A stretch of 64,000 nt of DNA from an uncultured Gammaproteobacteria bacterium (GCA_964515005.1 CAZEVT010000003.1:12815-76814); one strand, 5' to 3'. Counted from the stretch's first letter, positions 10,841 through 57,638 are shown. Translations and numbers: made by a program. Notes: a model not told the origin generated them from the sequence alone.

Positions 10841-11523
10841 AAAAACTTTCGATTATTATTCCGGTCTATAACGAAGAGAAAACAGTCGCGGAAATTCTTA
10901 CCCGCGTTTGGCGGGCTCCGCTTGCCGGGTGGGAGAGGGAAATTATCGTCATCGACGACGGATCAACGGATACCACGAGGAAAATTTTAAAATCCTGGGA
11001 GAAAAAGGTGACCGTCCTGTATAGGTCGAAGAACGAAGGGAAGGGAAGCGCGGTAACGATGGGACTACGCAAATCTTCGGGCGATATTATCCTCATGCAG
11101 GATGCGGATCTGGAATATAGCCCGGATGATTACCCGGTACTCCTGACGCCATTTGAAAATGATCACGTCAACATTGTCTACGGCTCACGATTTCTAGGCC
11201 CCCATCTTTCGACCATGTTTATCTATGCCCAGGGGAACAAGTTTGTGACGCTCGTGACCAATCTCTTGTTTAATACAAACATTACCGATATGGAAACAGG
11301 ATATAAAGTGTTCCGGAAAAAAGTTCTTGAAGGTATAACTATTCGCGCCAAACGATTTGATGTTGAACCCGAGCTCACCGCCAAGGTGCTGAAGAAAGGG
11401 TATCAGATTTATGAAGTCCCCATATCCTATTTTGGTCGCAAGTTTTCAGAGGGAAAGAAGCTTACATGGAGAGACGGCGTCGTAGCGCTCTGGACGCTTA
11501 TCAAATTACGATTCGTAGACTAA
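10837..11523 (+). CDS. GT2 polyprenyl-phosphate glycosyltransferase (DPM1/GtrB-like)
   Basis: IIIPVYNEE...IIVIDDGSTDTT...MQDADLEY over 228 aa, the size and motifs of dolichyl/undecaprenyl-phosphate sugar synthases. Confidence 0.8.
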   Translation: MKKLSIIIPVYNEEKTVAEILTRVWRAPLAGWEREIIVIDDGSTDTTRKILKSWEKKVTVLYRSKNEGKGSAVTMGLRKSSGDIILMQDADLEYSPDDYPVLLTPFENDHVNIVYGSRFLGPHLSTMFIYAQGNKFVTLVTNLLFNTNITDMETGYKVFRKKVLEGITIRAKRFDVEPELTAKVLKKGYQIYEVPISYFGRKFSEGKKLTWRDGVVALWTLIKLRFVD

Positions 11524-11532: not shown

Positions 11533-12792
11533 ATGCATCTTAGAGGATTAATTCAGAAAGTCATGTCGCATACTCTCGCCAAGAGTAGTGCAATTGTGTT
11601 TGCCGGAACCATGACGGCAAATGTTTTTGCGTACGTTTATCACCTGCTAATGGGAAGGCTTCTGGGTCCGGCTGGATACGGCGAGCTGTCATCGCTTATT
11701 TCTCTTTTGTACGTATTTTCCGTACCACTGACCGTTGCCAATACGGTAATTGTGAAATACGTTTCCGGTTTTAAGGCGCGAGGGGAAATGGGTCAGGCAA
11801 AATTCCTTTTTTTGAAGTTGACAAAGGTGTTCGCCGTAATTAGCATCATGGGATTTCCCATCGCATACATTGCGGCTCCGACTATCGCATCTTTTCTTCA
11901 TTTGAATTCCCCAGTATTATTTGTTTGGGTCTATCTTCTTTTGGTTTTATCACTTTTGACCGTGGCTGCACTCGGCACACTTACGGGATACCAGAAGTTT
12001 ATCTGGGTCAGCGTGCTTGGGGCTGCAGGACTTCTTCTTAAAGTGGTTTTGAGTATTCCTGCAGTTTCCTGGGGTGTATCCGGGGTTTTGGGCGCTGCGG
12101 TGCTCGCAAGTTTTGTGGGATACGTATGGTTTTTTATTCCGCTTCGGTTTATTCTTCGGGCGAAAGCAAAACCAACCGGGTTAACCGGGAGAGACGCATT
12201 TCGGTATGCGGTGCCGACTTTTCTGACGCTCTTGGGAATAACTTCGCTCTATTCAACAGATATCATTCTCGTGCGTCATTTCTTTGATATGGAAGCTGCG
12301 GGTTTGTACGCGGCACTTGCGGTTCTTGGAAAAATTATCTTTTATGCGTCATCGGCGGTAGGCGTCGTGCTGTTTCCGGTCGTCTCGGAACGCGTGGCGC
12401 GAGGTACTGCAACTCACAAGCTCATTGTGATTGCCGCAGGCAGCGTGGCTTTGCTCTCTCTGGTTCTTACGGCAATATATTTCGTTTTTCCCCATGTCAT
12501 CATAAGCCTACTCTTCGGTAATGCGTACGCGGGAGGTGCGCAGTACTTGGGGCTGTTCGGGGTGTTTCTGGCGCTTTTTTCAATCGGCAACATTATCGCG
12601 CTGTCGTGCCTGGCGCTAGGGAAAACCGGTATAGGAGTCGTCACTATGATTCCCGCGCTGCTCCAGATCGTGGGTATCGGTCTATTTCACGAGAGTATCT
12701 CCTCTGTTATACTTCTCAACATTGCGGTTTCTGCCTTATTTGTTCTTTTATCAGGCGGATATTATTTGAAGACAGCCTATGAAAAAGTTTAG
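11533..12792 (+). CDS. MOP-superfamily polysaccharide flippase (Wzx-like)
   Basis: 419 aa with about 12 TM helices. The N-terminal RLLGPAGYGELS matches the Polysacc_synt R-x-LG-x-E-x-YG signature. Confidence 0.55.
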   Translation: MHLRGLIQKVMSHTLAKSSAIVFAGTMTANVFAYVYHLLMGRLLGPAGYGELSSLISLLYVFSVPLTVANTVIVKYVSGFKARGEMGQAKFLFLKLTKVFAVISIMGFPIAYIAAPTIASFLHLNSPVLFVWVYLLLVLSLLTVAALGTLTGYQKFIWVSVLGAAGLLLKVVLSIPAVSWGVSGVLGAAVLASFVGYVWFFIPLRFILRAKAKPTGLTGRDAFRYAVPTFLTLLGITSLYSTDIILVRHFFDMEAAGLYAALAVLGKIIFYASSAVGVVLFPVVSERVARGTATHKLIVIAAGSVALLSLVLTAIYFVFPHVIISLLFGNAYAGGAQYLGLFGVFLALFSIGNIIALSCLALGKTGIGVVTMIPALLQIVGIGLFHESISSVILLNIAVSALFVLLSGGYYLKTAYEKV

Positions 12793-26681: not shown

Positions 26682-26690
26682 CTGACCAGT

Positions 26691-27554: not shown

Positions 27555-27632
27555 ACGGTACAGTATAGCTCCTTTTGATTAGCTTTGGAAGGTAATATGA
27601 TACAATTCCTAAGACTTATTTGAAAAGGACGT

Positions 27633-42742: not shown

Positions 42743-43845
42743 ATATTGGAATAGATGGCTATGAAGCAAATATTGAAAATCGAGTCGGAATTGGACGTTA
42801 TGCCTTTGAAATTCTTACGCATCTTTATCCGATAGCCGGGCACCATACGGTAACGGTATTTTTACCATCAAAACCTCTCCCACATATGCCGAAAGAAACA
42901 TCACGCTGGCGCTACCGGGTTGCCGGACCGGCAAACTTATGGACATTTATCGGGTTGCCCTGGGCCATGAAAGCGGTGCATCTGGATGTTATGTATTCGC
43001 CGACGCATTATATTCCTAGGTTTACGTCCGCGCCTCGGGTTATGGCGATTATGGATATTTCCTATCTCAAATATCCCGAGCTTTTTGAGGTCAAAGACCT
43101 CTATCAGCTGCAGCACTGGACGGCATATTCGGTGGCCCACGCCCGGTCGATTTTTACGATCAGCCAGGCCTCCAAAAATGATATAATAGATGCATACAAC
43201 GTACCGGCCTCCAAGGTCGTCGTGACGTATCCCGGTTTTACTATGACTACTGCGTCAAATGTCCCAAGTAAATATAAGATATCAAAAAACTATATTCTGT
43301 CGGTCGGAACAATCCAGCCTCGAAAAAACTTCACGAAGCTCATTGAAGCGTTTGCACTGTTCGTTAAGGAAAACAAGCAAAAGTTTGCAGATTTGGAGCT
43401 TGTGATCATCGGGAAAAAGGGATGGCTTTACGGAGAGATTCTTGAAGCTCCGAAAAAATACGGAGTCGCGGAGCGTGTAAAATTCTTGGATTTTGTGCCG
43501 GAATCTGACTTGCCGAGTTTTTACGCGCATGCCTTATGCTTTGCGCTTCCGAGCTTATACGAGGGATTCGGATTGACCGTTTTGGAGGCGATGGCATACA
43601 GGTGCCCGGTCGTCGTTTCCCGCGTATCCAGTTTACCGGAAATTGCGGGAAAGGCAGGGGTCTATGTAGACCCCGAGAGCGCCCAAAGCATTGCCGAGGG
43701 GCTTTTGACTGCCGTGCGGCAAAGAAATCTAGTGCAGGGAACAAGCAGGGTTCGCGTGGGGCGCGAGCAAGTCAGTAAGTTTACATGGGAAAAGGCAGCT
43801 AGGCAAACACTGGCGGTTCTTGAAGATGTAGGAGGGAAATCATGA
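42739..43845 (+). CDS. GT4 family glycosyltransferase
   Basis: Full length, with [18 protein letters not shown]. Confidence 0.85.
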
Positions 43846-44405
43846 GACTATTTATCGATTTTTGGGTATTTCTTTGTACACTCACGGGGTATATCCCTAG
43901 CCACATCATTCGACTGTTTTTGTATCGGACACTGTTTGGTGTACGAATAGGCAAAGATTCTTCCATACACTGGCGGGCCGAGTTTAATCAACCTATGGGT
44001 GTTAGTATCGGACATAATACCGTCATTGGAAACGATGCATTTTTGGACGGGCGGATGAAGCAGTTTTTGTCATATCGCAAAACCCATGGGTCGCCGCTGA
44101 CAATCGGCAACAACGTTTCGATTGCGGGAGAGGTGCGCATCTACACCATGGAACATGATATCGACTCTCCTGACTTTACCGAAGTGGGCACACCGGTCGT
44201 TATCGACGACTACGCGGTTATAGGAACGCGCGTCACGATCCTTCCCGGGGTACACATCGGAAAGGGTGCAGTTGTGGCATCGGGCGCCGTAGTGACGAAG
44301 GATGTCGGTGAGTATGAAGTCGTAGGAGGGGTGCCTGCCAAACTCATCAAAGAAAGGTCCAAAGATCTCCGCTACACACTGAAATTTGCGAGGCTCTTTC
44401 AGTAA
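43842..44405 (+). CDS. Hexapeptide-repeat (left-handed beta-helix) sugar O-acetyltransferase
   Basis: Tandem [LIV]-G-x-x-x-x hexapeptides ([38 protein letters not shown]), 187 aa. Confidence 0.8.
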
Positions 44406-44407
44406 GT

Positions 44408-45277
44408 ATGGATCTATCCATCATCATCCCCAGTTTTAACACAAAACACCTCACCACGCGCTGCCTGCGGTCTATTGTCGAGACCCTCAAGCGGTCTACG
44501 CTCACATACGAGATTATTGTCATAGATAACGCGTCAACAGACGGTACCGTTTCGGTTTTGAACAATGATTTTCCTCAAGTAATAAAAATACTCAATAAGA
44601 CTAATGTAGGCTATGGTACAGCCAACAACCAAGGATTAGCCGCGGCAAAGGGCACGTATGCCCTGATGCTCAATTCCGACATTGATGCGTTAAACGGCTC
44701 ATTAGAAAACCTTATGGACTTTGCCAAAACCCATCCTAAATCGTTTGTCGGCGGCAAGCTATACAACGAAGACGGATCGCTGCAGCCTTCATGCGGTCCG
44801 ATGTTTACTCCGTGGTACGTCTTTCTTATGCTTTTTTTCCAGGCTGATGAGCTTCGCGTGACCCGGTATTCGCCCGACGAAGTGAAGAGGGTTGAATGGG
44901 TATCTGGTGCGTGCCTGTTGGGCACCAAAAAGGCGTTTTATGACGTCGGGCTATTTGATCAGAGTATTTTTATGTATATGGACGAGATTGAGCTTTTGTA
45001 CCGTGCTGGCAAAAAGGGTTACAAGGTCTGGTTTATCCCGGACGCCCGCTTTATCCATACGGGTGCGGCTTCAAGCGGCAACAAGCGCTCGCCGGTCAAA
45101 AACATTTTTCGGGGGCTCATGTTTTTCTACCGCAAGCACTATTCGCCGTTTGCCGTCATGATGTTGAAGGGCATGCTGACTCTCAAGGCGTATATCGCCA
45201 TTACAATCGGGAAATTGTTGAAAAAACAGGATTTGGTTCAAATTTATGAAGAAGGCCTTCAACTGGTTAACGAGTAA
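44408..45277 (+). CDS. GT2 family glycosyltransferase
   Basis: LSIIIPSFNT...IIVIDNASTDGT...LNSDID. Confidence 0.85.
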   Translation: MDLSIIIPSFNTKHLTTRCLRSIVETLKRSTLTYEIIVIDNASTDGTVSVLNNDFPQVIKILNKTNVGYGTANNQGLAAAKGTYALMLNSDIDALNGSLENLMDFAKTHPKSFVGGKLYNEDGSLQPSCGPMFTPWYVFLMLFFQADELRVTRYSPDEVKRVEWVSGACLLGTKKAFYDVGLFDQSIFMYMDEIELLYRAGKKGYKVWFIPDARFIHTGAASSGNKRSPVKNIFRGLMFFYRKHYSPFAVMMLKGMLTLKAYIAITIGKLLKKQDLVQIYEEGLQLVNE

Positions 45278-48242
45278 TATAGGACTGCTTGCCATCCTAT
45301 TTTTCACGGCGTTTATTCCGCTGTATCCCAAGCTGCCGCTGATCAATGTGATCCGGACCTGGGTGTATGTGCGGCTTGAGGATTTTCTGGTCGCCGCGGC
45401 AATCGGCATCTATATCCTCATTCGCTTCCGGCGCAGGAGTATCCCCAAAACGCCGCTCACGTGGCCCATTCTTTTCTACTGGAGCATAGGAACGGTTTCT
45501 GCGGTATTTTCACTCCTTTTTATAGGGCCGCACCTGGAGGGGTACTTTCCGCATCTGGTTGCGCTGCACTTTATCCGGCGCGTTGAGTACATGATGCTCT
45601 TTTTCATGGCCTACGACGTCATTGTTCATGAAAAATCCCGTGTTAATGCTTTAGTGTGGACGCTTGCCGCAACGATGCTGGGCATCATCATTTACGGGGC
45701 CGCGCAGAAGTTTTTGGGATGGCCGGCGTATCTGACCATGAATGAGGAATTTGCCAAAGGGATTCCTCTGCGGCTTCCGCCGACAGCCCGCATTCCTTCG
45801 ACTTTCGGGGGGCATTATGATCTTGCGGCCTACATTGTACTTACTATCCCTATTTTGGCGACGCTTGTATTTGCAGTACAAAAGTTTTGGCAGAAAATTG
45901 TTTTTTTCGCGCTGTCGGTGGGGGCGCTTGTACTTCTTCTTTTTACTGCGTCCCGTACCTCGTTTCTTGTCTATTTGATTGCCGTATCCGCCACGCTTTG
46001 GTGGTACAAAAAGAAATGGTTTATTGTCCCGGTCATCCTTTTTAGTTTTTGGCTTCTCAATTACGTCGGAGTGGCGACTGACCGGTTCTACAAGACGTTT
46101 CGTTTTTCTGACATCATCGTAGATCTATCCACAGGAAGACCAGTGGGGACGCTCGATAAGCTTGAGGGGACAAGCGCAGTTATCAAGGAATCCGAATCTC
46201 CGGCAGAAGAAAGTTTACCCACGGGTAGTCAGTACATCGGGCTTCCCTCCGGCCAGTTGGCGCAGGAACAGGCCAAAACGATAGAAATATACAAAAGCCT
46301 AGATTTGGCCACTGCGTCGGGAGAAATCGCCACTATCTCTGGCAGTTTCCTCATCCAGAAAGCGCTCGTCTATGACATATCCATAACGACCAGATTTCAG
46401 GGGCAGTGGCCCAAAGCTCTCGCGGCTTTCAAAAGAAACATTTTTTTGGGAAGCGGGTATTCGACGCTTTCACTTGCCGCAGACGGAGACTACATGCGGA
46501 TGCTTGGAGAAACCGGTCTTTTGGGAACCATAGCATTTTTGGGAATTATTGTCGCGGCGTTTGTCTTTTTCTTCCGAAGGAAAGAGACACTTAGCGGTAT
46601 TCCCAAAGCGTATGTTGTTGGGGTATTCGGCGGACTCACCGGGCTACTACTCAACGGCATCCTCATAGACGTCTTTGAGGCGTCCAAAGTCGCATTTTCA
46701 CTATGGCTTCTTTTAGGAGTCGCGATGGCTCTTTTGGCGGTAAAAGAACTGTCACCGAGGAGTTATTTCAAGCTCATGTGGAAAGCGCTGACTTCAAACG
46801 CCGCTTTGCTTTTTTACCTTTTTACGGCAGGCGCGGTACTATTCGGAAGCGCCGTGTCGCATTATTTTTTGGGTGATGACTTCACGTGGCTCAAATGGGC
46901 GACGCAAACCTCATTTGCCGATATATCCCAACTGTTTACCGATTCTGAAGGATTTTTCTACCGTCCTATCCCCAAGCTTTGGTACATGATTCTCTATGCG
47001 TTGTTTTGGCTCAAACCCGAAGGGTACCATGTCATGTCGATCATTCTTTTAGGTGCAAGTTCGTACCTTTTGTTTCTCATCATGCGCCTCACCGGCGTTA
47101 AGCGCACGTTCGCGTTTCTTGCCAGCTTACTCTTTGCCGTGCTTTCGATTCATCATGAAAATGTGTTTTGGATATCCGGGCACAGCAGTTTGCTCTCCGG
47201 AGTATTTTTGTTTGGGAGCATATACGCATACCTTAGGCAGGCGGGTGGCCGCGGAATTTGGAGGGCGGGGCTATGGGTGTTTTCGATGATCCTGGTGATG
47301 CTCTCCATGCTTTCCTATGACGGCATGCTGGTGGCGCCCATAATTCTATCTCTTGTCGGGTGGTTTGTGGTGAAGAAAAAACACGTTACCACATTCATTC
47401 CACTTCTTGCGATTCCTCTGTACTGGTGGGTGCGTACCGCAAGTGGAGCGGTACCGCCTTCCGGGGATTATGGATATAGGCTCAGCGCATTACCCTTTAA
47501 TATTCTGGGCAACAGTGTCGGATATATTGTTTCCGCGTTTTTGGGTCCCCGTATCATGGAAGTTATGAGTGGAGTTCGCACCTATCTGCGGGAAAATCAA
47601 ATGATTGCAGCGGGAGGGGGGGCACTCACTATCGCGGCATTTTCGTTTGTCGCATGGAAGGTAAGGCGCGAAATCGGCACGTATAAAAACGCACTTATAT
47701 GGTTGATTGCGGGGTTTGTTGCCTTGGCTGCCTACGTCGGATTGGGCGGGATGAGCGAACGCTACACATTTGCCGCAAGCGGCTTTTTCGTGATATCTGC
47801 AGGAGCATATGTGTCCACATTGTGGGAGAAAGGCACACGAACGATTTGGAAAATAATTGTGGCCTTTTCGTTTGTCGCACTTATTGTTTGGAACATCGCA
47901 GAAGTGACACGTGTAAGCCGCGATTGGAAAAAAGCTGGTGAGACTTCGCAGCGCTCACTCGTGACGTTGAGCAAAATGTTTTTCCCTCTTAAAGAACAAA
48001 AAAGCTTTGTATTTATCAATATGCCGATTCGCTATGGCCGCGCCTGGATATTTCCGACGGGACTTGCGGATCCGTTGTGGCACGTTTTTCGTTTAAGTGA
48101 TTGGCGCTATACCGTAACGAATGTTTCTACCCCGCAGGAAGCCTATGCGTTGCCCATCACCCAGGGGTATACACCGGAAGTCTTTATTTTCGACAATTTT
48201 ACCCTAAAGCGACTCGTGAAAGAGATTCAGGTAGTTCAATAG
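45246..48242 (+). CDS. Fusion membrane protein: O-antigen ligase/polymerase-like (Wzy_C) domain + second GT-C-like polytopic domain
   Basis: 998 aa. The N-half carries FTASRTSF and STFGGHYDLAAY loop motifs typical of the WaaL/Wzy_C family. The C-half (about aa 500 onward) is a further TM bundle of roughly 12 helices with an SIHHENVFWISGH loop. Confidence 0.5.
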   Translation: MKKAFNWLTSNIGLLAILFFTAFIPLYPKLPLINVIRTWVYVRLEDFLVAAAIGIYILIRFRRRSIPKTPLTWPILFYWSIGTVSAVFSLLFIGPHLEGYFPHLVALHFIRRVEYMMLFFMAYDVIVHEKSRVNALVWTLAATMLGIIIYGAAQKFLGWPAYLTMNEEFAKGIPLRLPPTARIPSTFGGHYDLAAYIVLTIPILATLVFAVQKFWQKIVFFALSVGALVLLLFTASRTSFLVYLIAVSATLWWYKKKWFIVPVILFSFWLLNYVGVATDRFYKTFRFSDIIVDLSTGRPVGTLDKLEGTSAVIKESESPAEESLPTGSQYIGLPSGQLAQEQAKTIEIYKSLDLATASGEIATISGSFLIQKALVYDISITTRFQGQWPKALAAFKRNIFLGSGYSTLSLAADGDYMRMLGETGLLGTIAFLGIIVAAFVFFFRRKETLSGIPKAYVVGVFGGLTGLLLNGILIDVFEASKVAFSLWLLLGVAMALLAVKELSPRSYFKLMWKALTSNAALLFYLFTAGAVLFGSAVSHYFLGDDFTWLKWATQTSFADISQLFTDSEGFFYRPIPKLWYMILYALFWLKPEGYHVMSIILLGASSYLLFLIMRLTGVKRTFAFLASLLFAVLSIHHENVFWISGHSSLLSGVFLFGSIYAYLRQAGGRGIWRAGLWVFSMILVMLSMLSYDGMLVAPIILSLVGWFVVKKKHVTTFIPLLAIPLYWWVRTASGAVPPSGDYGYRLSALPFNILGNSVGYIVSAFLGPRIMEVMSGVRTYLRENQMIAAGGGALTIAAFSFVAWKVRREIGTYKNALIWLIAGFVALAAYVGLGGMSERYTFAASGFFVISAGAYVSTLWEKGTRTIWKIIVAFSFVALIVWNIAEVTRVSRDWKKAGETSQRSLVTLSKMFFPLKEQKSFVFINMPIRYGRAWIFPTGLADPLWHVFRLSDWRYTVTNVSTPQEAYALPITQGYTPEVFIFDNFTLKRLVKEIQVVQ

Positions 48243-48244: not shown

Positions 48245-49687
48245 ATGGGAAATCAAAAAAACAGGTTTTTCGGTGTTTGGCTTACGGCAATAGCAATCGT
48301 TGCTTTTGCTCTGCGCCTCTACCATATCAACGGCCCGGTTGCCGACTGGCACAGCTGGCGTCAGTCGGATACGGCCGCAGTTGCGCGTAATTTTCTGCGG
48401 TTTGGGATTGATCCGTTGCATCCGAGGTATGACGACCTGTCCAATATTCAGTCCGGGAAAGACAATCCCATGGGATGGCGGATGGTGGAGTTTCCCATCT
48501 ATCAGACGATAGGTGCGTTTCTTGCCCAATCATTTCCGGGACTCACCATTGAAGTTTGGTTGCGTCTGGTAACTATAGTGGCATCGGTCGGAACGACAGT
48601 ACTGGTTGGCCTTTTGGCCGCAGAATTTATTTCTCCCTTAACCGGAATTATTGCCGCGGGCATCTATGCAGTTCTTCCTTACAGCGTCTATTACGGCCGC
48701 GCGATTCTTCCGGATTCCTTTATGGTATTTTGGGGGGTATTCAGTCTGTGGCTTCTCACACGCGGGAAAGGCTATCCGTGGATTATCGCCAGCGCCGCGG
48801 CCGGGGGAGTTGCGCTTTTATCCAAACCCATGGCCGCGTTTCTTCTTATCCCTGTTCCATATATTGTATTTCGGCAGTTCGGGTTTTCCCGGCAGCTTTT
48901 TGCTCGACTCTTTATATATGCTCTGATAAGTCTCGTTCCACTTATACTTTGGCGCAGGTGGATATTGCAGTTTCCTGAAGGCATTGCCGTCAGCTCGTGG
49001 CTCTTAAACGGAAATGGCATTCGGTTCAAAGGGGCCTGGTTTCGGTGGCTATTTGCCGAGCGCATCGGCAATCTTATTCTGGGGTATTGGGGCCTCATTC
49101 CCTTCGGGCTAGGGCTTGCGGCGTCGGTTACCAAAAAAGAAGGCTGGTTTTTCCGTTTTTGGGCAATCGGGGTTTTGACCTACTTTATTGTCTTTGCCTC
49201 GGGTAACGTGCAGCACGATTATTATCAAATCCTCATCATTCCCGCCCTTGCCATATTTACGGCCAAGGGAATCGTTTCACTTCTCCAATATAAGCGGTCG
49301 GGAATGGTCGTTGCCGCATTGAGTCTTCTTGCGATGCTGGGGTTTTCCTGGTACACCATCCGCACGTACTATTGGATAAACCGCCCGGAAATCGTCGAAG
49401 CGGGGAAGGCCACGGACGCGATGATACCTCGGGACGCCAAAGTGATCGCCTCCTATAACGGGGATACGACATTCTTGTATCAGACCGGCAGGCAAGGTTG
49501 GCCTTTGGGATTTGAAATTGACAAGAAAATCGCGATGGGGGCAACGCACTATGTGACAGTTTCGCCAAGTGACAGTGACGGCGAGACCAAAGACTTGGCA
49601 AATCGGTATACCGTGCTTGTTCGGAACGAAAAATTTGCGATTATTGACCTGACGAGGCCCCGCCTACCGGCGGGCAAGCCAAAATGA
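48245..49687 (+). CDS. GT39/83-family (ArnT/PMT_2-like) membrane glycosyltransferase
   Basis: WHSWRQSDTAAVARNF motif near the first loop and about 11 TM helices. The likely start is ATG 48245, 3 nt after the upstream stop. Confidence 0.7.
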   Translation: MGNQKNRFFGVWLTAIAIVAFALRLYHINGPVADWHSWRQSDTAAVARNFLRFGIDPLHPRYDDLSNIQSGKDNPMGWRMVEFPIYQTIGAFLAQSFPGLTIEVWLRLVTIVASVGTTVLVGLLAAEFISPLTGIIAAGIYAVLPYSVYYGRAILPDSFMVFWGVFSLWLLTRGKGYPWIIASAAAGGVALLSKPMAAFLLIPVPYIVFRQFGFSRQLFARLFIYALISLVPLILWRRWILQFPEGIAVSSWLLNGNGIRFKGAWFRWLFAERIGNLILGYWGLIPFGLGLAASVTKKEGWFFRFWAIGVLTYFIVFASGNVQHDYYQILIIPALAIFTAKGIVSLLQYKRSGMVVAALSLLAMLGFSWYTIRTYYWINRPEIVEAGKATDAMIPRDAKVIASYNGDTTFLYQTGRQGWPLGFEIDKKIAMGATHYVTVSPSDSDGETKDLANRYTVLVRNEKFAIIDLTRPRLPAGKPK

Positions 49688-50874
49688 AAATTCTTTTTGT
49701 TTCAGCCGTCCTGCCGTACCCCTTGCATTCCGGGGGACAGATCCGGATATATAATCTGCTGAAACGGTTGGGGAAGAAGCACGAGATTCACCTCTATTCC
49801 TTTATCCGGTCGGAAAGTGAAAAAAAGTATCTTCCGAAGTTATCATTTTGCAAAAAGGTCGTCACGGTTCTGCGAGGCCGTGTATGGCAGCCGAAATATC
49901 TGTTCAAAGCAATAACCAGCTCGTACCCTTTGTTATGGAGTAGTTACGATAACCGGGAGATGTTTGGGCTTTTGTCAGGCGAGATTGGCCGCGACAACTA
50001 TGATCTTGTCCATATAGAGCCGGGATATGTGTTCCCGTCGCTCCCCCCGATTGATATTCCTTTGGTGGTGTCCGAACATAATATTGAGCATACGGTCTAT
50101 GCGGCATACGTGGGCACGCTGCCGAAAGTACTAGGACCCTTTCTTTCCCGTGACGTGGAAAAAATAAAACAATGGGAAGAAAAGGTCTGGAAGCGCGCCA
50201 GTCACGTGACTGCAGTCTATGAAGGCGATCAGAAGCATATTGCTTCGATTATTGATCTCAAAAGGGTGAGCATTGTTGGGAACGGCGTTGACCTTGCGCA
50301 GTTCCTTTTCCTGCCGAAAAAGACCCTTTCTCAAAAGGAATTAACATTCCTGTATGTCGGTAACTTTTTGTGGATCGAGAATATTGACGCGGTCGAGTAT
50401 CTCCTCAAGAAGGTTTGGCCCGTTATTATGCAACACTATCCGGGCGCGCGGTTGCGGATTGTGGGGAAGCATCTTCCTCTACGGCTTCGCCTCCTCGGGG
50501 GATCCCCCTCGGTTTCATTTTTTGAACATGTTGAGGAAATTTACAAGGAATATCAATCGGCCGATATTCTTCTTGCGCCCATCCGGGTCGGCGGAGGAAC
50601 AAAATATAAACTGATCGAGGCAATGGGCAGCGGCTTGCCGGTCATCACGACAAGCATTGGCGCACAGGGCATCGAACACAAAGGATCACGGGGACTCCTG
50701 GTTGCTGATTCTCCCGAAGAAGCGCTACAATCCGTGAGGACGCTTCTCGATAATACAAAGAGGATATTTTTGGTGACCAATGCGCGGTCTGTCATTGAGA
50801 AATCTTTTTCCTGGGACGTGATTGCCAAACAACTGGAAGGGGTCTGGAAGCAAACCTATGAACACGGCAACTGA
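49684..50874 (+). CDS. GT4 family glycosyltransferase
   Basis: GG.KYKLIEAMGSGLPVITT C-terminal motif and an N-terminal MKILFVS...SGGQ start. Confidence 0.8.
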   Translation: MKILFVSAVLPYPLHSGGQIRIYNLLKRLGKKHEIHLYSFIRSESEKKYLPKLSFCKKVVTVLRGRVWQPKYLFKAITSSYPLLWSSYDNREMFGLLSGEIGRDNYDLVHIEPGYVFPSLPPIDIPLVVSEHNIEHTVYAAYVGTLPKVLGPFLSRDVEKIKQWEEKVWKRASHVTAVYEGDQKHIASIIDLKRVSIVGNGVDLAQFLFLPKKTLSQKELTFLYVGNFLWIENIDAVEYLLKKVWPVIMQHYPGARLRIVGKHLPLRLRLLGGSPSVSFFEHVEEIYKEYQSADILLAPIRVGGGTKYKLIEAMGSGLPVITTSIGAQGIEHKGSRGLLVADSPEEALQSVRTLLDNTKRIFLVTNARSVIEKSFSWDVIAKQLEGVWKQTYEHGN

Positions 50875-51733
50875 ACTTTCGATCATCATCGTCAACTTTA
50901 ATACCAAAGACATCACTCGCGCATGTCTGGATTCCATACGGAAATGGTCGGAAGGGCGCCCGTGGGAAATCATCATGGTCGACAACGGCTCGACTGACGG
51001 CAGCGTCGAGATGCTCGAGAAGTACCCGGGAATTACCCTCATTTTAAACAAAAAAAATTTGGGATTTGCGAAGGCGAATAACAAAGGGATAAAGGTTGCC
51101 AAGGGAAAATATATCCTCCTTTTGAATTCCGATACAGAGATCCATCAGGATTCCGTCCAAACCATGCTGCGATTTATGGATGGGCATCTGAAGGCAGGCG
51201 CGGCTACGTGCAAGCTGGAACTCATGGACGGCACAATGGATCCTGCGTGCCACCGGGGATTTCCTACTCCCTGGGCATCATTGAGCTATCTTCTCGGACT
51301 TGAGAAACTGTTCCCAAAATCCCGGCTATTTGCCGGCTATCACCTTGGGTACAAAAATATGGATATTCCGCACCAGGTGGATTGCGTAAGCGGTGCCTTT
51401 TTTATGGCCCGCCGCGAAGCGATTGACGCGGTAGGAGTACTTGACGAAGATTATTTTTTCTATGCCGAAGATATCGACTGGGCATACCGTTTCAAGAAAA
51501 AAGGGTGGGAGATCTGGTTTAATCCGGAAGCCACGGTTCTGCATAAGAAGAAACAAAGCGGGAGGGCAAATGTACTACGATCTCGACAAATCAAAACCGA
51601 GATGTACTTCCATACGTACAACTGGCTCTTCTTTAAAAAACACTATGCGAAAAAATATGGTCCGTTGGTCTCGATCCCCGTGAGCATTTTTTATACGATC
51701 CGCTTGTTTTTGCTCAAAAACTTTTCTCTATGA
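50858..51733 (+). CDS. GT2 family glycosyltransferase
   Basis: LSIIIVNFNT...IIMVDNGSTDGS...LNSDTE. The likely start is ATG 50858. Confidence 0.85.
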   Translation: MNTATELSIIIVNFNTKDITRACLDSIRKWSEGRPWEIIMVDNGSTDGSVEMLEKYPGITLILNKKNLGFAKANNKGIKVAKGKYILLLNSDTEIHQDSVQTMLRFMDGHLKAGAATCKLELMDGTMDPACHRGFPTPWASLSYLLGLEKLFPKSRLFAGYHLGYKNMDIPHQVDCVSGAFFMARREAIDAVGVLDEDYFFYAEDIDWAYRFKKKGWEIWFNPEATVLHKKKQSGRANVLRSRQIKTEMYFHTYNWLFFKKHYAKKYGPLVSIPVSIFYTIRLFLLKNFSL

Positions 51734-52260
51734 AGATTGGCATTGATGCGCGCCTTATCGACGAAACCGGAGTTGGGAGATATATCCGGAACCTTATAGT
51801 GGAACTGGGAAAGATTGATAAGACAAATTCATACGTTGTCTTTTTACGGAAACGTTCCTACGGCGATTTCGTTGCGCCGAATGCGCGCTGGCAAAAACGG
51901 CTTGCGGACGTGCCATGGCATAGCGTCGCCGAACAATTATTTATGCCGGCGATATTTAATGGGGGGAAATTGGATCTCCTCCATGTGCCGTACTTCAACG
52001 TCCCGCTTTTGTACTTTGGGAAATTTATTGTGACGATCCATGATTTAACCGTTCTTCACGTTCATACCGGTAAGGCAAGTACCCTCCCATATTTTTTCTA
52101 TCAAATCCGGCGGTTGGGATATCATCTGTCACTACTAAAAGCGCTTTCCTGGGCAGAAAAGATTATTGCGGTGTCGGGGGCAACGAAGAAAGAAATTACC
52201 GATCATTTTGATGTGCTGCCCGCGGATATTACGGTGATTTACGAAGGGGGATCGTTATGA
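51730..52260 (+). CDS. GT4 glycosyltransferase, N-terminal half (split gene)
   Basis: 176 aa with MKIGIDAR...TIHDLT...VIYEGGSL, then a stop. A G5 tract lies at 52246-52250 just before the stop. Confidence 0.6.
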   Translation: MKIGIDARLIDETGVGRYIRNLIVELGKIDKTNSYVVFLRKRSYGDFVAPNARWQKRLADVPWHSVAEQLFMPAIFNGGKLDLLHVPYFNVPLLYFGKFIVTIHDLTVLHVHTGKASTLPYFFYQIRRLGYHLSLLKALSWAEKIIAVSGATKKEITDHFDVLPADITVIYEGGSL

Positions 52261-52775
52261 AGACGCCGTATTTTCTCTATGTTGGAAATGCATATCCTCA
52301 TAAAAACCTGGAAATTCTTATAGACGCATTTGCTGCGCTCGGCGGCGATACCACGCTTGTCCTGGTGGGAAAAGATGATTATTTTTATAAACGGCTGAAA
52401 CAAAGTGAACGAGTGAAGACGCTGGGAAACAGAATTGTTTTTAAAACGAGTGTATCGGATAGAGAACTGGGAAGTTTGTACCGCGATGCGCAAGCATTTG
52501 TATTTCCGTCGCTCATGGAAGGCTTCGGATTGCCTGCCATCGAAGCACTTGCCCATGGTTGTCCGGTCATTTGTTCGGATATACCCGTCTTTCATGAGAT
52601 TCTTGGTGAGGCAGCAACATACTTCGATCCGAACGACGTCGACCGCCTTACAAAAATTCTCGCGGTTGCCCTAGAAAAAAGACCCAGAGTCGACGGGAGT
52701 ATCGTAAAGAAGTATTCCTGGCAAAAAATGGCTAAGGAGACATTATCTGTATATGAAAATCGGTCTCGTCTATGA
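52257..52775 (+). CDS. GT4 glycosyltransferase, C-terminal half (split gene)
   Basis: 172 aa with PYFLYVGN...EGFGLPAIEALAHGCPVI. Starts 4 bp inside the preceding half's stop. Confidence 0.65.
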   Translation: MKTPYFLYVGNAYPHKNLEILIDAFAALGGDTTLVLVGKDDYFYKRLKQSERVKTLGNRIVFKTSVSDRELGSLYRDAQAFVFPSLMEGFGLPAIEALAHGCPVICSDIPVFHEILGEAATYFDPNDVDRLTKILAVALEKRPRVDGSIVKKYSWQKMAKETLSVYENRSRL

Positions 52776-53871
52776 CCGCGTAAATAAATGGGGCGGGGCT
52801 GAGCGGGTTCTTCTTGCGCTCCATGAGATTTGGCCGGAGGCGCCGCTTTATACTGCGGTCTACGACGAGAAACGTGCATCATGGGCAAAGGTATTTGAGG
52901 TTCATCCTTCGTTCCTGCAGCATATTCCCTTCGCCAAAAATAATCACGAGTTTTATCCATGGTTTACTCCCATGGCCTTTGAAACGTTTCGCTTTGACGG
53001 ATATGATGCAGTGCTTTCAGTGACGTCTGCGGAGGCTAAAAATATTATTACCAAGCCCGGTACCGTGCATATATGCTACTCCCTGACCCCGACGCGATAT
53101 CTTTGGAGCGGAGAGAAAGAATATGTAAAATATTCAGATCAAATTTCATCACACATGTTTCGTCTGTGGAGGGCGACGCTCAAACGATGGGACCAGGTTG
53201 CGGCTTCGCGACCCGATTATTATCTTGCCATTTCCAACCATGTTGCGGGTCGCATAAGGAAATACTACCAGCGGGAAACAGAAAAAGTTATCTATCCGCC
53301 GGTTGATCTTCAGATGTTTCGGCCAGAGGCCGATCAGCCTTTGGCTGATACGCCGAATGGTAAAGGCGACTATTTTCTTTGTGTTGCAAGGCTCGTGCCG
53401 TATAAACGTGTGGACCTTGTCATAGATGCGTTTAACAAATTAGGCTGGCTGCTCAAAATTATCGGCAGGGGTAGAAGCGAGTCATCGCTTCGGCAAAAGG
53501 CAAAAAAGAATATTGAATTTGTCGGTGGTGATTTGACAGATGAAGAAGTCCGTGCCTATTATCAAAAGGCCCGTGCTTTTGTGTTTGGGGGCGTCGAAGA
53601 CTTTGGTATTGTATCGCTTGAGGCTCAAGCATGCGGCAAGCCGGTGATTTGCCCGCGGGACTCCGGAATGGCGGAAACCGTGATGGAGGGCAAAACCGGA
53701 GAATTGTTCAGCGAGCAGTCAGTCGGTTCGCTTACCGCCGCGTTGCGAAAGTTTGATAAAGGGTGGTATGATAGCGACTTCTGCCGCACAAACGCAGAAA
53801 AATTTTCTATGGACCGATTTAAAAAAGAAATGAAGGAGACTGTGATGAGGTTGGCGACACATACACTATGA
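52753..53871 (+). CDS. GT4 family glycosyltransferase
   Basis: EDFGIVSLEAQACGKPVI motif, with an N-terminal MKIGLVYD...WGGAE start. Confidence 0.8.
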   Translation: MKIGLVYDRVNKWGGAERVLLALHEIWPEAPLYTAVYDEKRASWAKVFEVHPSFLQHIPFAKNNHEFYPWFTPMAFETFRFDGYDAVLSVTSAEAKNIITKPGTVHICYSLTPTRYLWSGEKEYVKYSDQISSHMFRLWRATLKRWDQVAASRPDYYLAISNHVAGRIRKYYQRETEKVIYPPVDLQMFRPEADQPLADTPNGKGDYFLCVARLVPYKRVDLVIDAFNKLGWLLKIIGRGRSESSLRQKAKKNIEFVGGDLTDEEVRAYYQKARAFVFGGVEDFGIVSLEAQACGKPVICPRDSGMAETVMEGKTGELFSEQSVGSLTAALRKFDKGWYDSDFCRTNAEKFSMDRFKKEMKETVMRLATHTL

Positions 53872-54950
53872 AGGCAATAATATTCGCAGGCGGAGTAGGC
53901 ACAAGGCTGTGGCCGCTTTCCCGAAAAAAATCCCCCAAGCAATTTGAAAAAATTGTCGGCAACAAGTCGACCCTCCAGTTGGCTGCGCAGCGTCTTCTCC
54001 CTGATTTTTCCTGGAAAGACATCTATGTTTCGACCGGCAAGCCGTACGTTGAACTGATTCAAAAACAGCTCCCCGAGGTGCCTGCCGATCAGGTTATTGG
54101 TGAACCCGAGATGCGGGATGTTGGGCCTGCCGTCGGCCTTATAACGTCGCTTCTTGTGAAAAAGTCGCCCCTTGAGCCAATGGTCATCCTTTGGAGCGAT
54201 CATCTGGTCAAAAAAGACGCGCTGTTTCGAAAAGTTCTCATGGCCGCGGGGGATATAGTGAAAAAAGAACCCGACCGCATTATTTTTGTTGCCCAAAAGC
54301 CGCGATTTGCTAGTGAAAACCTGGGATGGATTGATTATGGAAAAGAAATGCAGCGGGAAAACGGCGTTCCGTTTCACGCATTTGTCGACTTTCAATACCG
54401 CCCGGACGGGGCCACTGCCAAACGCTACTTGGAAAGCGGCCATCATGCGTGGAATCTCGGGTACTTCGTCACGACCCCGCAATTTTTGTGGAAACAATAC
54501 GAGCGGTTTGCCCCGAATGTTCACCAAGGACTATCCCGGATTGCCGATGCCTGGGGCACTACGCGATTTGAAGAAGTTCTTGCCGAGGTATACCCGACGC
54601 TTGAGAAAATCAGCTTTGACAACGCGATTCTGGAAAAACTCGACCCGGGGGGTGCGCTGGTTGTTTCTGAAAACATCGGATGGAGTGATATTGGCGCGTG
54701 GGAAGCGCTCAAGGAGGCGCTTCAGGAGGCGGAGGACAAAAATGTCACGCAGGGAAAAGTGATTCTAACCGATACGTCCGATTCGCTTGTTTATAACTAC
54801 ACGGATCAGACCATCGCAACGATTGACGTTGATGATATGCTCATCGTTACGACCGATGACGTGGTACTCGTCTGCAAGAAATCATCGGTACCCAAAATAA
54901 AAAAACTGGTCGAAAGCTTGAAAGGGACAGAGCACGAGCATCTGACATAA
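53868..54950 (+). CDS. manC: Mannose-1-phosphate guanylyltransferase (GDP-mannose pyrophosphorylase)
   Basis: AIIFAGGVGTRLWPLSR...PKQF N-terminal signature, 360 aa. Confidence 0.8.
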   Translation: MKAIIFAGGVGTRLWPLSRKKSPKQFEKIVGNKSTLQLAAQRLLPDFSWKDIYVSTGKPYVELIQKQLPEVPADQVIGEPEMRDVGPAVGLITSLLVKKSPLEPMVILWSDHLVKKDALFRKVLMAAGDIVKKEPDRIIFVAQKPRFASENLGWIDYGKEMQRENGVPFHAFVDFQYRPDGATAKRYLESGHHAWNLGYFVTTPQFLWKQYERFAPNVHQGLSRIADAWGTTRFEEVLAEVYPTLEKISFDNAILEKLDPGGALVVSENIGWSDIGAWEALKEALQEAEDKNVTQGKVILTDTSDSLVYNYTDQTIATIDVDDMLIVTTDDVVLVCKKSSVPKIKKLVESLKGTEHEHLT

Positions 54951-54957: not shown

Positions 54958-55596
54958 ATGGGATATTCGTCGACGAAGCGGTGTATCGATATAGGCGGAA
55001 GTGTACTTTTGGGAGTATTCTTTTTTCCCATTTCTCTTGTGACGGCACTAGCCATTTACTTGGATTCCCCCGGACCGATATTTGCCGACACCCCCCAGCG
55101 GGTAGGAAAAGGGGGCAAACTCTTTAAGCTCTATAAATTCCGTTCGATGGTCGTCCATGCGCATGAAAAGCTGCGGAGCGACCCGAAGCTGGCGAAGCTT
55201 TACAGCGAATACAAGAAAAACAGCTACAAGCTTCTGGATGATCCGCGGGTGACCCACGTCGGCCGCTTAATCCGCAAGCACTCACTCGACGAAATTCCCC
55301 AACTTCTCAACGTCATGCGGGGCGACATGAGCCTTGTTGGGCCCCGGCCGTATTACCCGGATGAGCTCGTTGAACAGCAGCGAAAGTATCCGCATACGAA
55401 AGACTTGGTGAAAGTCGTGCTTTCGGCAAAGCCCGGTATTACCGGCCACTGGCAGGTGTCTGGGCGAAGCGAAGTTAACTTTGACAAGCGGATAAAAATG
55501 GATGCAGACTACGTCAAAAAGCGTTCGCTTCTTATGGACATATCGATTCTTCTGAAAAGCCCCTGGGCCATGATCTCGGGCAAAGGCGCGGTGTAG
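54958..55596 (+). CDS. Polyprenyl-phosphate hexose-1-phosphate transferase (bacterial sugar transferase, PglC/WbaP C-domain type)
   Basis: KRCIDI, a single TM, and [21 protein letters not shown]. Confidence 0.85.
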
Positions 55597-55634: not shown

Positions 55635-57638
55635 ATGCCCGAGGAGCTCAAAAAAATAGAACTGGAGACGACGCCTCGGCCAAAGGCCGACCAGCCTCTG
55701 GCTGGTGTACCCGCTTTGAACTCCATGAACAAGAAACCATTTCCCTGGAAATTTATTTTCATTCCTTTAGGCGTCATCCTTGTTTTCCTCGTTGTGATCG
55801 GACTCATGTTGCTTCCGCTTCGCGGCGTTATGGCCAAAGCCCAAAACGTTGCGCAAACCGGTCGTATCCTTGGGGATGCCGTGAAAAGCCAGGACCTGGT
55901 GAAGGCAAAAGAAGGGCTTGCAGCGACAAGGAAAAGTCTTGAGGAGCTTCGGAGTGAGTACGGCAAAATAAAACCGCTTATGGTCGTTCCTCTTCTCGGC
56001 GCGTATATAAAAGATGGCGATCACGCAATCAAAGCAGGGTTTGCCGGACTTGATGCGGGGGACAAGGCCATCGAAGCACTCGAGCCCAATGCGGACATTC
56101 TGGGACTCAAAGGCAAAAGCACATTTGTCTCGGGGACCGCCGATGACCGGATCCAGACAGCAGTCAAAACCATGAACGCGCTCGTGCCAAAAATAAATGA
56201 AATGGCCGGAAGCATCGATACCTTACGACGCGAAATCGACGCGATAGATCCCGCGCGCTACCCCGACCACATCGGCAAGACGTCCATTCGGCCGCGCCTC
56301 GTGGGAATCAAAGAAGTCATTGAAAATGCGGCGAATTTGTTTGTGAATGCACAGCCTTTACTCGTGAATCTACCCAAACTTCTTGGCGAGCCCGATGAAA
56401 AGCGCTACCTCGTGCTTTTCCAAAACGACAAGGAACTTCGGTCAACAGGCGGATTCATCACCGCCTACGCACAGTTCCGGTTTGTACGGGGCAAAGCAAT
56501 TTTGGAAAAATCAGATGATATCTACGCGCTTGATGCCGCCAAGACCAAGAAGTTTGAAGCACCCCGGGAAATTTCCACGTTCCACAAAGGTGTCTATGAG
56601 CTCCACATCCGCGACTCAAATCTTTCGCCCGATTTCAAGACGTCCATGCTGAAGTTTGAAGAAATGTACAACACCACATCTGGTAAAGAAAAAATTGACG
56701 GTATTTGGGCGATGGACACGCATGTACTGGTCGAGGCATTGAAGATTTTAGGCCCCATGAACGTATACGGCCGCGTGTTTAGTGCAGAAATTGACAAGCG
56801 GTGCGATTGCCCCAAGGCAGTCTACGAACTTGAGGATTATTCGACGCGCCCGGTCAACTATGTGAAGACCGCGCGCAAAGATATTATCGGTGTCCTTCTT
56901 CAGACTATTTTGCAGCAGGCCTTGGGCGTTTCCCCTTCCAAGTACTGGGGACCGCTTTTCCAGATGCTCATTACGGAAATTAACGAAAAGCATGTCCTTG
57001 CATACTTCCATGATCCTGCCGCCCAGAAGGCCGCGGAAAGCTTCAATATGGCAGGTCGCATTATGGCGGCAACCGACACGGCGACGCTTTTGAAGTATGA
57101 AGAGGGCAACGGCTGGGACTATCTCCACGTCAACCACAGCAATATGAGCGGCGCTAAAGCCAATATGTTTGTATCGGAGAAAATTACCAAAGACACGACC
57201 GTAAATACCGACGGAACGGTGATCACTAAATTAACCGTCGATTATAAAAATCCCTACAAAGGAAGCGACTGCGGACTCGAGTCCGGAGGGCTCTGCCTTA
57301 ACGCGCCGCTTCGCAATTGGGTGCGGGTGTTTGCGCCAGCAGGAAGCAAGCTCGTTGAGAGTAAAGGCACTCAGTCGCCCAAAGACAGCAAAGCGACGCC
57401 CATGGAGACCTATGACTCACTGGGAAAAACTGTGTTTGAAGGGTTCCTCATCGTCAACCCATTGGGGACAGCGAAGCTTGAGCTGACGTATACGTCACCG
57501 GTTTCCCAGGTAGACGGGAAATACAAGCTCCTTATCCAGCGCCAGCCGGGATCTGACGATCAGGAGTTTATTCTCAAGCTCGGCGGTAAAGAAAGAAAGA
57601 AATTTATCCTCAAAACTGATACGGAGGTAGTATTGTAG
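55635..57638 (+). CDS. Membrane-anchored extracytoplasmic protein, possibly DUF4012-like
   Basis: N-terminal TM anchor, a 600-aa soluble domain, and an LVLFQNDKELRSTGGFI motif. The family assignment is tentative. Confidence 0.4.
   Translation: MPEELKKIELETTPRPKADQPLAGVPALNSMNKKPFPWKFIFIPLGVILVFLVVIGLMLLPLRGVMAKAQNVAQTGRILGDAVKSQDLVKAKEGLAATRKSLEELRSEYGKIKPLMVVPLLGAYIKDGDHAIKAGFAGLDAGDKAIEALEPNADILGLKGKSTFVSGTADDRIQTAVKTMNALVPKINEMAGSIDTLRREIDAIDPARYPDHIGKTSIRPRLVGIKEVIENAANLFVNAQPLLVNLPKLLGEPDEKRYLVLFQNDKELRSTGGFITAYAQFRFVRGKAILEKSDDIYALDAAKTKKFEAPREISTFHKGVYELHIRDSNLSPDFKTSMLKFEEMYNTTSGKEKIDGIWAMDTHVLVEALKILGPMNVYGRVFSAEIDKRCDCPKAVYELEDYSTRPVNYVKTARKDIIGVLLQTILQQALGVSPSKYWGPLFQMLITEINEKHVLAYFHDPAAQKAAESFNMAGRIMAATDTATLLKYEEGNGWDYLHVNHSNMSGAKANMFVSEKITKDTTVNTDGTVITKLTVDYKNPYKGSDCGLESGGLCLNAPLRNWVRVFAPAGSKLVESKGTQSPKDSKATPMETYDSLGKTVFEGFLIVNPLGTAKLELTYTSPVSQVDGKYKLLIQRQPGSDDQEFILKLGGKERKKFILKTDTEVVL

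Follow-up and report, generated by a model that had tools for sequence, protein, structure and literature searches.

A Wzy_C-type membrane module fused to a predicted GT-C(A) glycosyltransferase in a conserved glycan operon of Microgenomates bacteria

We analysed a 64,000-nucleotide (nt) stretch of DNA, here called the window at its full length, from a record titled as an uncultured Gammaproteobacteria bacterium (GCA_964515005.1 CAZEVT010000003.1:12815-76814), and describe one gene in it that joins two polytopic membrane modules of different glycosyltransferase (GT) classes. The window holds one glycan locus of ~57 kb that lies almost wholly on the plus strand; besides a Wzx-type flippase, it encodes no fewer than seven GT-C(A)-type proteins and many GT2, GT4 and sugar-modifying enzymes. 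The gene in question is one open reading frame (ORF) running from ATG to stop over 998 codons with zero internal stops; its product comprises a Wzy_C-like N-module, a short K/R-rich linker and a GT-C-like C-module, with about 20–25 hydrophobic or helical membrane segments in total (Table 1). All three motifs quoted from the protein in the initial annotation are present, namely STFGGHYDLAAY (residues (aa) 185–196), TASRTSF (aa 234–240) and SIHHENVFWISGH (aa 634–646).

Table 1. Features of the fusion gene and its operon. Coordinates are those of the window; fractions refer to 80 species-representative loci. TM, transmembrane helix; AF2, AlphaFold model.
Feature	Coordinates	Strand	Basis
Whole gene, bimodular integral membrane protein, 998 aa	45246..48242	+	Single ORF; stop at 48240-48242
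N-module, aa 1-497, 12-TM Wzy_C/WaaL-superfamily (GT-C(B)-like)	45246..46736	+	Pfam, hhalign, Foldseek, conservation
Large extracytoplasmic loop TM9-TM10, aa 272-415	46059..46490	+	AF2 secondary structure and pLDDT, Pfam span, conservation
Cytoplasmic K/R-rich linker, aa 498-517 (AVKELSPRSYFKLMWKALTS)	46737..46796	+	Positive-inside analysis; sister-clade split point
C-module membrane domain, aa 518-912; conserved R730, Y742, R839	46797..47981	+	AF2, Foldseek, conservation
C-module first extracytoplasmic loop, aa 539-590; D544-D545 (GDDFTW), FYR573PIPK577	46860..47015	+	Conservation, alignment to 6757-8232
SIHHENVFWISGH motif, aa 634-646; E638, W642 invariant; H636, H637 variable	47145..47183	+	Conservation
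Small C-terminal extracytoplasmic beta-rich domain, aa 913-998; PIRYGRAWIFPTGLxDxLWH	47982..48239	+	AF2 strands 919-995, conservation
GT4, upstream flank			Expected side and strand in 73/80 loci
Hexapeptide-repeat acetyltransferase	43842..44405	+	Pfam; syntenic, on expected side and strand, in 75/80 loci
Upstream GT2 (PF00535), 3' end overlapping fusion start by 32 nt	44408..45277	+	Upstream on same (expected) side and strand in 72/80 loci; overlap conserved
Downstream PMT/PMT_2-type GT-C, 480 aa (PF02366/PF13231)	48245..49687	+	Downstream on same (expected) side and strand in 77/80 loci
GT4, downstream flank			Expected side and strand in 70/80 loci
GT2, downstream flank			Expected side and strand in 57/80 loci
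Further genes: GT4, GT2, split GT4, GT4, ManC-like sugar-1-phosphate nucleotidyltransferase	49684..54950	+	Pfam, synteny
Initiating polyprenyl-phosphate phosphoglycosyltransferase (Bac_transf, WbaP C-domain type)	54958..55596	+	TIGR03025 7e-71; conserved in L003, L004
DUF4012 membrane protein, 667 aa, last gene of conserved operon	55635..57638	+	PF13196; conserved in L003, L004
Candidate polyprenyl-phosphate-sugar synthase, 228-aa GT2, possible donor supplier for GT-C enzymes	10837..11523	+	NCBIfam
Wzx-type flippase candidate (Polysacc_synt, MOP)	11533..12792	+	PF01943

An NCBI 79-kb contig, Logan SRR6155509 and JGI 3300010391, all assembled independently, encode an identical 998-aa protein with the same gene neighbours. 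A homology search returned 2,067 relatives, and the best 120 of these, for which lengths, identities and coverage were compiled, measure 809–1,013 aa (nearly all ~960–1,013 aa) at 48–82% identity and mostly 96–100% coverage, the shortest being one 809-aa entry with 83% coverage. A scan of one genome per species gave 256 genomes with a relative, and the best 80 served for the counts of intact and syntenic loci. An uninterrupted orthologous ORF of 959–1,097 aa is present in 78/80 of these loci and the remaining two are truncated by contig ends; all 78 complete loci are thus intact, at 34–66% identity, and conservation runs continuously over the linker region. The uninterrupted reading frame described in the initial annotation therefore stands, and the junction singled out there (aa ~480–520) contains the linker. 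Because the same ORF occurs in three assemblies and intact orthologues in 78/80 loci, and given the lengths of the homologues, mis-assembly, a frameshift and a missed stop are excluded: the fusion is real and under selection, and is not a chance ORF or a chimera. The description of the fusion as unusual applies in general, but within Microgenomates the fused form is the norm (at least 78 species).

The assignment to Microgenomates comes from the record titles and source names of the relatives, which include Candidatus Gottesmanbacteria, Woesebacteria, Levybacteria, Roizmanbacteria and 'Microgenomates/Patescibacteria'; the host of the fusion protein is a Microgenomates bacterium of the Candidate Phyla Radiation (CPR, or Patescibacteria). 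Many species-representative records with a Microgenomates-type operon are titled 'uncultured Gammaproteobacteria' (L012, L014, L016–L019 and others), and two further operon carriers (L064 and L067) have odd titles, one 'Methylomirabilota' and one 'Lysobacterales'. Such titles are probably placeholder or mis-binned labels. In public databases, proteins of the family are named 'hypothetical', 'O-antigen ligase' or 'RgtA/B/C/D-like domain-containing'.

The two modules also occur as separate genes. In three independent assemblies of a sister clade (L093, L095 and L096), a 530–532-aa Wzy_C-like gene is followed in the same operon by an adjacent 464–470-aa C-module gene, and the split falls exactly at the linker of the fused form. 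Among themselves, the N genes share 58–73% and the C genes 45–59% identity, the three junctions differ (a 1-nt TGATG overlap, a 4-nt ATGA overlap and a 6-nt gap) and no key residue of either module is lost. About 15 relatives of the split C gene are all 447–485 aa long, on contigs of up to 1.57 Mb. Three other apparent splits were rejected: in L005 a TAG stands in frame at the codon for the conserved Glu478 (~2990) and tblastn aligns straight through it, and L006 and L009 are contig-end fragments. In L094 the gene is split at an A-run in the linker (~7000) with a change of frame, which is ambiguous as evidence of a split. The TAG of L005 and the frame change of L094 are sequencing errors or recent inactivation or fission, and database protein lengths can mimic split genes.

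Standalone entries in L007, L008 and L091 were likewise rejected as orthologues lacking an N-module, being extra paralogues beside a fused gene. In L091 (GCA_964406795.1), the fused orthologue at 2984-6169 is divergent (1,061 aa) and keeps all N-module residues, with a degenerate C-module in which DD has become RD, HHEN has become TFQS, and FYRP, SERY and GRAW are lost; one gene downstream, at 7001-8512, lies a standalone C-module paralogue with its motifs intact. L007 and L008 probably have the same arrangement, and no second C-module copy was found within 4 kb in the 78 mainstream loci. L091 looks like a case of subfunctionalisation in which a dead domain has been retained. That its standalone paralogue keeps the motifs lost from its fused C-module would fit a need for one catalytically intact C-module in each operon, and one such copy appears to be kept; the retention of the degenerate copy hints that contact between the modules is itself functional. 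As judged from gene arrangement, these forms show the modules to be autonomous units that belong together.

By profile comparison and modelling, the N-module is a divergent member of the Wzy_C/O-antigen-ligase/SEDS superfamily. The sole Pfam match of the fusion, sub-threshold in score, is Wzy_C (PF04932; E 5e-4), with aa 223–430 against profile positions 2–147; among 46 family members scanned, 35 match Wzy_C at E ≤ 0.01 (best 1e-7) and for several a PF04932 match had been precomputed. A profile of the N-half, built from 20 diverse loci, was aligned by hhalign to an enterobacterial WaaL profile seeded with E. coli K-12 waaL (invariant residues R215, R265, R288, H336, H338, N339, S388 and D389), giving E 1.8e-4 with aa 52–288 on WaaL 53–274. 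The confident part of this alignment pairs TASR237 with WaaL TQTR215, which corresponds to R191 in C. metallidurans, the first arginine binding the phosphates of undecaprenyl pyrophosphate (Und-PP). The AlphaFold (AF2) model of the full-length fusion (mean predicted local distance difference test (pLDDT) 78.5, predicted template modelling score (pTM) 0.77) matches WaaL in Foldseek (7tpg_B; E 0.017, probability 1.00, TMt 0.53), and this match disappears with the C-half alone, as does a match to ALG12. Foldseek output carries no residue ranges, and by subtraction of one search from the other both matches would belong to the N-half. The claim of the initial annotation that the first ~450 aa bear Wzy_C/WaaL-type motifs is borne out by these results.

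AF2 helices and the positive-inside pattern give the N-half 12 transmembrane (TM) helices; TM9 and TM10 are connected by an outer loop of 144 residues. This loop holds a ~95-aa beta-rich insertion of low model confidence (aa 284–378), the motif TTR383FQGQWP and D413, and the Pfam match that spans it covers only 149 profile positions. Residue conservation was counted over 79 aligned orthologues from the 80 loci, and R43, D46, R111, E114, R182, D192, R237, R280, R383, D413, R418, D475 and K481 are invariant (79/79). In a permissive alignment, and in an independent one of the segment after the insertion, D413 falls opposite WaaL H338 (H313 in C. metallidurans) and D475 opposite D389, in the same register and with low confidence. 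Whatever the register, there is no conserved histidine at aa 400–427 of the N-module, the sole conserved histidine of the N-half being H190. R383 (TTRFQGQWPxAxxAF) resembles GAR288LAMYExGxxIF of WaaL at the level of the motif only, in a region where the profile alignment is unreliable; E. coli R288 corresponds to R265 of C. metallidurans, the second conserved arginine, in the big loop.

In WaaL, two arginines bind the Und-PP phosphates and a histidine activates the acceptor, and in SEDS and inverting Wzy-type polymerases of the same clan aspartate or glutamate replaces that histidine (PMC10920833). The set D413, R237 and R383 would fit this published pattern of Asp/Glu with one or two arginines (PMC10920833), with D413 in a low-confidence register. 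Because an invariant aspartate probably occupies the position of the WaaL catalytic histidine and no conserved histidine lies nearby, the residues suggest that the N-module is more likely polymerase- or SEDS-like than ligase-like; of the two activities named together in the initial annotation, 'polymerase' is thus favoured and WaaL-type ligase identity disfavoured. The N-half profile found no second Wzy_C-like gene in the window.

The C-module was modelled separately from a deeper alignment (pLDDT 95.8, pTM 0.94), and this model confidently places it in the GT-C(A) fold, the structural class of ArnT, PMT and PglB. All 14 PDB matches at E ≤ 1e-3 in Foldseek are GT-C(A) enzymes (STT3, AglB, PglB and AftA; E down to 1e-5), and ArnT, DPY19, Pmt4 and AftD lie just past this cut-off (E 1.2e-3 to 7e-3), with TM-scores of ~0.36–0.48 (TMq). 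The second membrane module had been called GT-C-like in the initial annotation, and the model agrees. No Pfam or NCBIfam family covers it: there is no Pfam match at E ≤ 1 in the C-half, and the C-halves of the 46 relatives gave zero matches at E ≤ 0.01, PMT_2, PMT, YfhO, PTPS_related and GtrII included. Two distant relatives have weak matches only, to GtrII (5e-5) and PMT_2 (7e-3). Three profiles found no PDB relative at sequence level, only chance matches such as DDB1 and a Photorhabdus protein. GRAWIFPTGLxDxLWH (window 48020-48100, aa ~927–950) is weakly like the blade motif GRxxVFxRGxDNALWHxWQ of Photorhabdus PDB 8q7u (E 3.9, not significant). An exhaustive search with the C-half returned 14,581 relatives at E ≤ 1e-3, of which 68 reach E ≤ 1e-30; the C-module is therefore a large GT-C family without an existing family model.

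Among C-module orthologues, D544, D545, R573, E638, R730, Y742 and R839 are conserved in 79/79. Over fused and standalone relatives together, D545 is the only invariant column, and conservation is 90% or higher at D544, R573, P574, H595, E638, W642, R730 and R839. An acidic pair straight after TM1, in the first outer loop, is a catalytic hallmark of GT-C enzymes, as in the 'DE' motif of PMT; in the C-half model, TM 518–538 is followed by juxtamembrane helices 545–554 and 557–564. The C-half profile aligns with the PMT_2-type ORF at 6757-8232 (hhalign probability 81%, E 1e-5), GDDF falling on GRDF, and this is its only profile-detectable relative in the window; BLASTP and HMM (hidden Markov model) searches of the window genes with either half found no paralogue. 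The resemblance of the HHEN loop motif to the first, truncated ORF of the window, suggested in the initial annotation, did not hold: the match lacks significance by HMM (E 3.6) and by hhalign (probability 2%), and in that weak alignment HHEN pairs with SPWHIQF of the ORF, not with YHSERVF. An oligosaccharyltransferase (OST) identity was rejected despite the top Foldseek matches, since the sequence has neither WWDYG nor WWD and its C-terminal domain measures just ~85 aa.

The predicted cytoplasmic loops of the N-half are all K/R-rich (MKK, RFRRRSIPK, YKKK, FRRKET and the linker KELSPRSYFKLMWK), and by positive-inside analysis its conserved-motif loops all fall outside. Because the N-half has 12 helices, the linker would be cytoplasmic, and the C-module would therefore start N-in, like GT-C(A) enzymes, with its DD loop outside. 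In the C-half, K/R-rich and conserved-motif loops alternate consistently, and some helices assigned by DSSP are juxtamembrane and not spanning. Both catalytic faces are thus predicted to be extracytoplasmic.

Wzy_C, ligase and SEDS-class enzymes use Und-PP-linked glycan donors, and ArnT-, PMT- and PglB-class enzymes use polyprenyl-phosphate-linked sugars. With WaaL (CAZy GT121, PDB 7TPG), Wzy and SEDS enzymes (clan GT-C1, or GT-C(B)), the N-module shares 12 TM helices, a large TM9–TM10 outer loop, R237 as the equivalent of E. coli R215, R383 as the probable second arginine and D475 as the approximate counterpart of WaaL D389 in the last outer loop; it differs from them in its sub-threshold Pfam score, its beta-rich loop insertion, the aspartate in place of histidine and the second membrane GT fused to it. 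The host clade is generally held to lack lipopolysaccharide, and lipid A-core would then be excluded as an acceptor. With GT-C(A) enzymes (ArnT 5F15, PMT 6P25/9I5K, PglB/STT3/AglB, AftA/AftD and Gtr/YfhO/GT136-type), the C-module shares the fold class, the acidic pair after TM1, conserved basic residues that face outwards and a C-terminal extracytoplasmic domain of small size; as in such systems, the genomic context includes a candidate polyprenyl-phosphate-sugar synthase, and distant relatives have weak GtrII and PMT_2 matches. Unlike them, it falls outside every Pfam and NCBIfam family and is without a sequence-level relative in the PDB; it reaches TM-scores of only ~0.45, lacks the OST WWDYG motif, the MIR domains of PMT and the carbohydrate-binding modules of Emb/AftD, and sits behind a Wzy_C module.

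The nearest analogy and precedent appears to be WadA of Brucella/Mesorhizobium, a bimodular O-antigen ligase in which GT121 is fused to a GT25 that completes its acceptor (PMC10920833). Both proteins link a Wzy_C-superfamily module covalently to a glycosyltransferase of the same pathway, which suggests coupled action. However, WadA has as its partner a soluble GT25 domain of GT-A type with a nucleotide-sugar donor, whereas the partner here is a polytopic GT-C predicted to act outside the membrane with a lipid-linked donor, in another lineage and on another glycan; neither Pfam nor Foldseek gave a GT25 or GT-A match in the fusion. Within the searchable literature, we came across neither a Wzy_C-type module joined to another polytopic GT-C nor this operon, and work linking CPR, Patescibacteria or Microgenomates with O-antigen ligase, Wzy or the cell envelope yielded no account of the protein.

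The fusion gene lies within a sub-operon whose 5' part comprises two epimerases, GT4 (a lone N-half ORF and a full-length GT4), the hexapeptide acetyltransferase and GT2, and whose 3' part comprises the PMT-like GT-C, GT4, GT2, the split GT4, a further GT4, the ManC-like nucleotidyltransferase, the Bac_transf phosphoglycosyltransferase and the DUF4012 protein. Gene order is the same in genomes whose orthologue is only 49–64% identical, and this conservation points to an envelope glycopolymer that is conserved, rather than to a hypervariable antigen. The DUF4012 protein stands after the phosphoglycosyltransferase at the operon end in the window and always in the relatives L003 and L004, and a role as co-polymerase or in export is possible. 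A GT4 is encoded as two overlapping ORFs for the N- and C-terminal Rossmann halves (51730-52260, 176 aa, and 52257-52775, 172 aa), which are also split in L003 and are a single 370-aa gene in L004; the arrangement recalls that of Alg13/Alg14, and a pseudogene is unlikely. The lone GT4 N-half (42209-42742, 177 aa) precedes the full GT4 at 42739.

Counting the PMT-like downstream neighbour of the fusion, the window has six further GT-C(A)-type genes of PMT_2, PTPS_related or YfhO-like type (3-1388, 1388-2908, 2905-4497, 6757-8232, 8229-9803 and 48245-49687), a density of extracytoplasmic, lipid-sugar-dependent glycosyltransferases unusually high for a small-genome CPR bacterium. The best NCBIfam matches of the candidate synthase are AglJ, dolichyl-phosphate hexose transferase, ArnC and PpgS, all below family cut-offs. 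A second giant membrane ORF at 33602-36571 (+; 989 aa with 9 TM or more) matches nothing in Pfam or NCBIfam, and further polytopic ORFs without a family lie at 29787-31700 (637 aa), 36581-38092 (503 aa; a weak MmpA-like match only, 1e-10), 38089-39936 (615 aa) and 5684-6787 (367 aa); by HMM or hhalign, the family-less membrane ORFs of the locus are unrelated to either fusion module. From ~20000 to 30000, GC content is 0.37–0.40, against 0.46–0.50 in the flanks; this stretch contains the only minus-strand genes of the window (20981-22036 and 24719-27554), many methyltransferases and two ORFs without a family, and may be a variable or acquired sub-cluster.

Taken together, the domain assignments, models and gene context suggest, with moderate confidence, that the protein is a bifunctional, ~25-helix extracytoplasmic glycan-assembly enzyme of a Wzx/Wzy-like cell-surface pathway. 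In the cytoplasm, the phosphoglycosyltransferase, the GT4 and GT2 enzymes and the acetyltransferase would assemble an acetylated oligosaccharide on Und-PP for export by a flippase. The N-module would then transfer the Und-PP-linked glycan en bloc, with R237 and R383 holding the pyrophosphate and D413 as the acceptor-activating base; chain polymerisation of repeat units would be the likelier reaction, because D413 replaces the ligase histidine. The C-module would use a polyprenyl-phosphate donor to attach a monosaccharide to this glycan or its acceptor, a step whose logic is supplied by three-component extracytoplasmic glycosylation systems (PMC11127046). Fusion or gene pairing would couple the two steps, the product of one site being handed to the other. 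Coupling of polymerisation to transfer, as raised in the initial annotation, is plausible, and both the split-gene clade and the conservation of synteny speak in its favour.

Several points weigh against this interpretation. The PF04932 match scores 20.3 bits in the full protein and 22.5 bits in the N-half (E 5e-4 to 1e-4), below the Pfam gathering score of 31.7 bits. The probability of the hhalign match to WaaL is only 48%, the WaaL structural match is assigned to the N-half by subtraction, and the equivalences of D413 to the histidine and of R383 to the second arginine come from a sub-region with a probability of 2.7% and from motif reading. C-half topology follows from the positive-inside rule and conservation, not from coordinates or a dedicated predictor. 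The synthase and flippase candidates lie ~34 kb from the fusion and may serve the other six GT-C genes. Lastly, fusion and synteny show a shared pathway, not a shared molecule or the passing of substrate.

A more specific form of the proposal, which we put forward tentatively as a possibility, is that a clade-wide core envelope glycopolymer is made via a ~15-gene operon by a 'polymerise-and-decorate' machine, in which a Wzy/SEDS-like polymerase of Und-PP-linked glycans is physically coupled, by fusion or as an obligate pair of genes, to a GT-C using lipid-phosphate sugars. To our knowledge, no characterised Wzx/Wzy pathway works in this way. If true, en-bloc chain growth and extracytoplasmic side-sugar addition or acceptor priming would take place in one complex.

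Among the alternatives, the one that survives best, though we regard it as rather doubtful, is a terminal ligase or O-oligosaccharyltransferase (O-OTase), in which the N-module would attach the finished glycan to an S-layer or pilin protein (PglL/WsfB-like) or to a membrane lipid and the C-module would glycosylate or prime the same acceptor. Gram-positive S-layer O-glycosylation uses Wzy_C-type transferases. Among solved structures the ligase WaaL comes closest to the N-half, GT-Cs that modify proteins (STT3, PglB, AglB, PMT and DPY19) head the structural matches of the C-half, and no Wzz-like regulator of chain length could be recognised among the operon genes. WadA adds a precedent of a ligase fused to an acceptor-completing GT (PMC10920833). 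However, the ligase/O-OTase histidine is absent, and the invariant aspartate aligned there, with no conserved histidine nearby, is the polymerase/SEDS state (PMC10920833); the C-module has neither WWDYG, a large C-terminal domain nor a PMT or PMT_2 Pfam match, and no acceptor-protein gene is evident in the operon.

It is unlikely that only one module is catalytic, with the C-module acting as a structural partner, a substrate platform or a regulator of chain length or processivity for the Wzy_C module. L091, whose fused protein has kept its N-module residues and lost DD, FYRP, HHEN, SERY and GRAW, fits such a role, and the pTM of the 998-aa model suggests a defined arrangement of the modules. 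Yet the C-module acidic pair and basic residues are strictly kept in this protein and its 79 aligned orthologues, and again in the split-gene clade and the standalone paralogues, and the intact standalone copy next door in L091 argues that a catalytic function is needed. That the long ORF arose as an artefact, through mis-assembly, an overlooked stop or frameshift or two genes read through as one, has a negligible probability: L005, L094 and the many 450–550-aa database entries would speak for it, but the last are contig-end fragments, and three assemblies, 78 intact loci, unbroken conservation through the linker and the pTM of the full-length model stand against it.

CPR bacteria make up a large, almost uncultured share of bacterial diversity, and their envelope chemistry is essentially undescribed. 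The fusion gene marks a glycan operon conserved over a major group of this lineage, with a relative encoded in at least 256 species-representative genomes, and it represents a rare covalent union of two GT-C structural classes, a Wzy/WaaL-like class that uses Und-PP-linked glycans and an ArnT/PMT-like class that uses polyprenyl-phosphate-linked sugars. Fused and split forms in the same operon context constitute Rosetta-stone-type evidence for cooperating activities, and the C-module defines an unmodelled GT-C family with about 14,600 relatives at E ≤ 1e-3. Residues R237, R383 and D413 of the N-module and D544/D545, R573, E638, R730 and R839 of the C-module are singled out for mutagenesis, and the protein is a compact structural target for the coordination of polymerisation and extracytoplasmic glycosylation. 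Both modules belong to known structural classes; their combination, as yet uncharacterised, occurs widely in a major uncultured lineage and is suggestive of mechanism.

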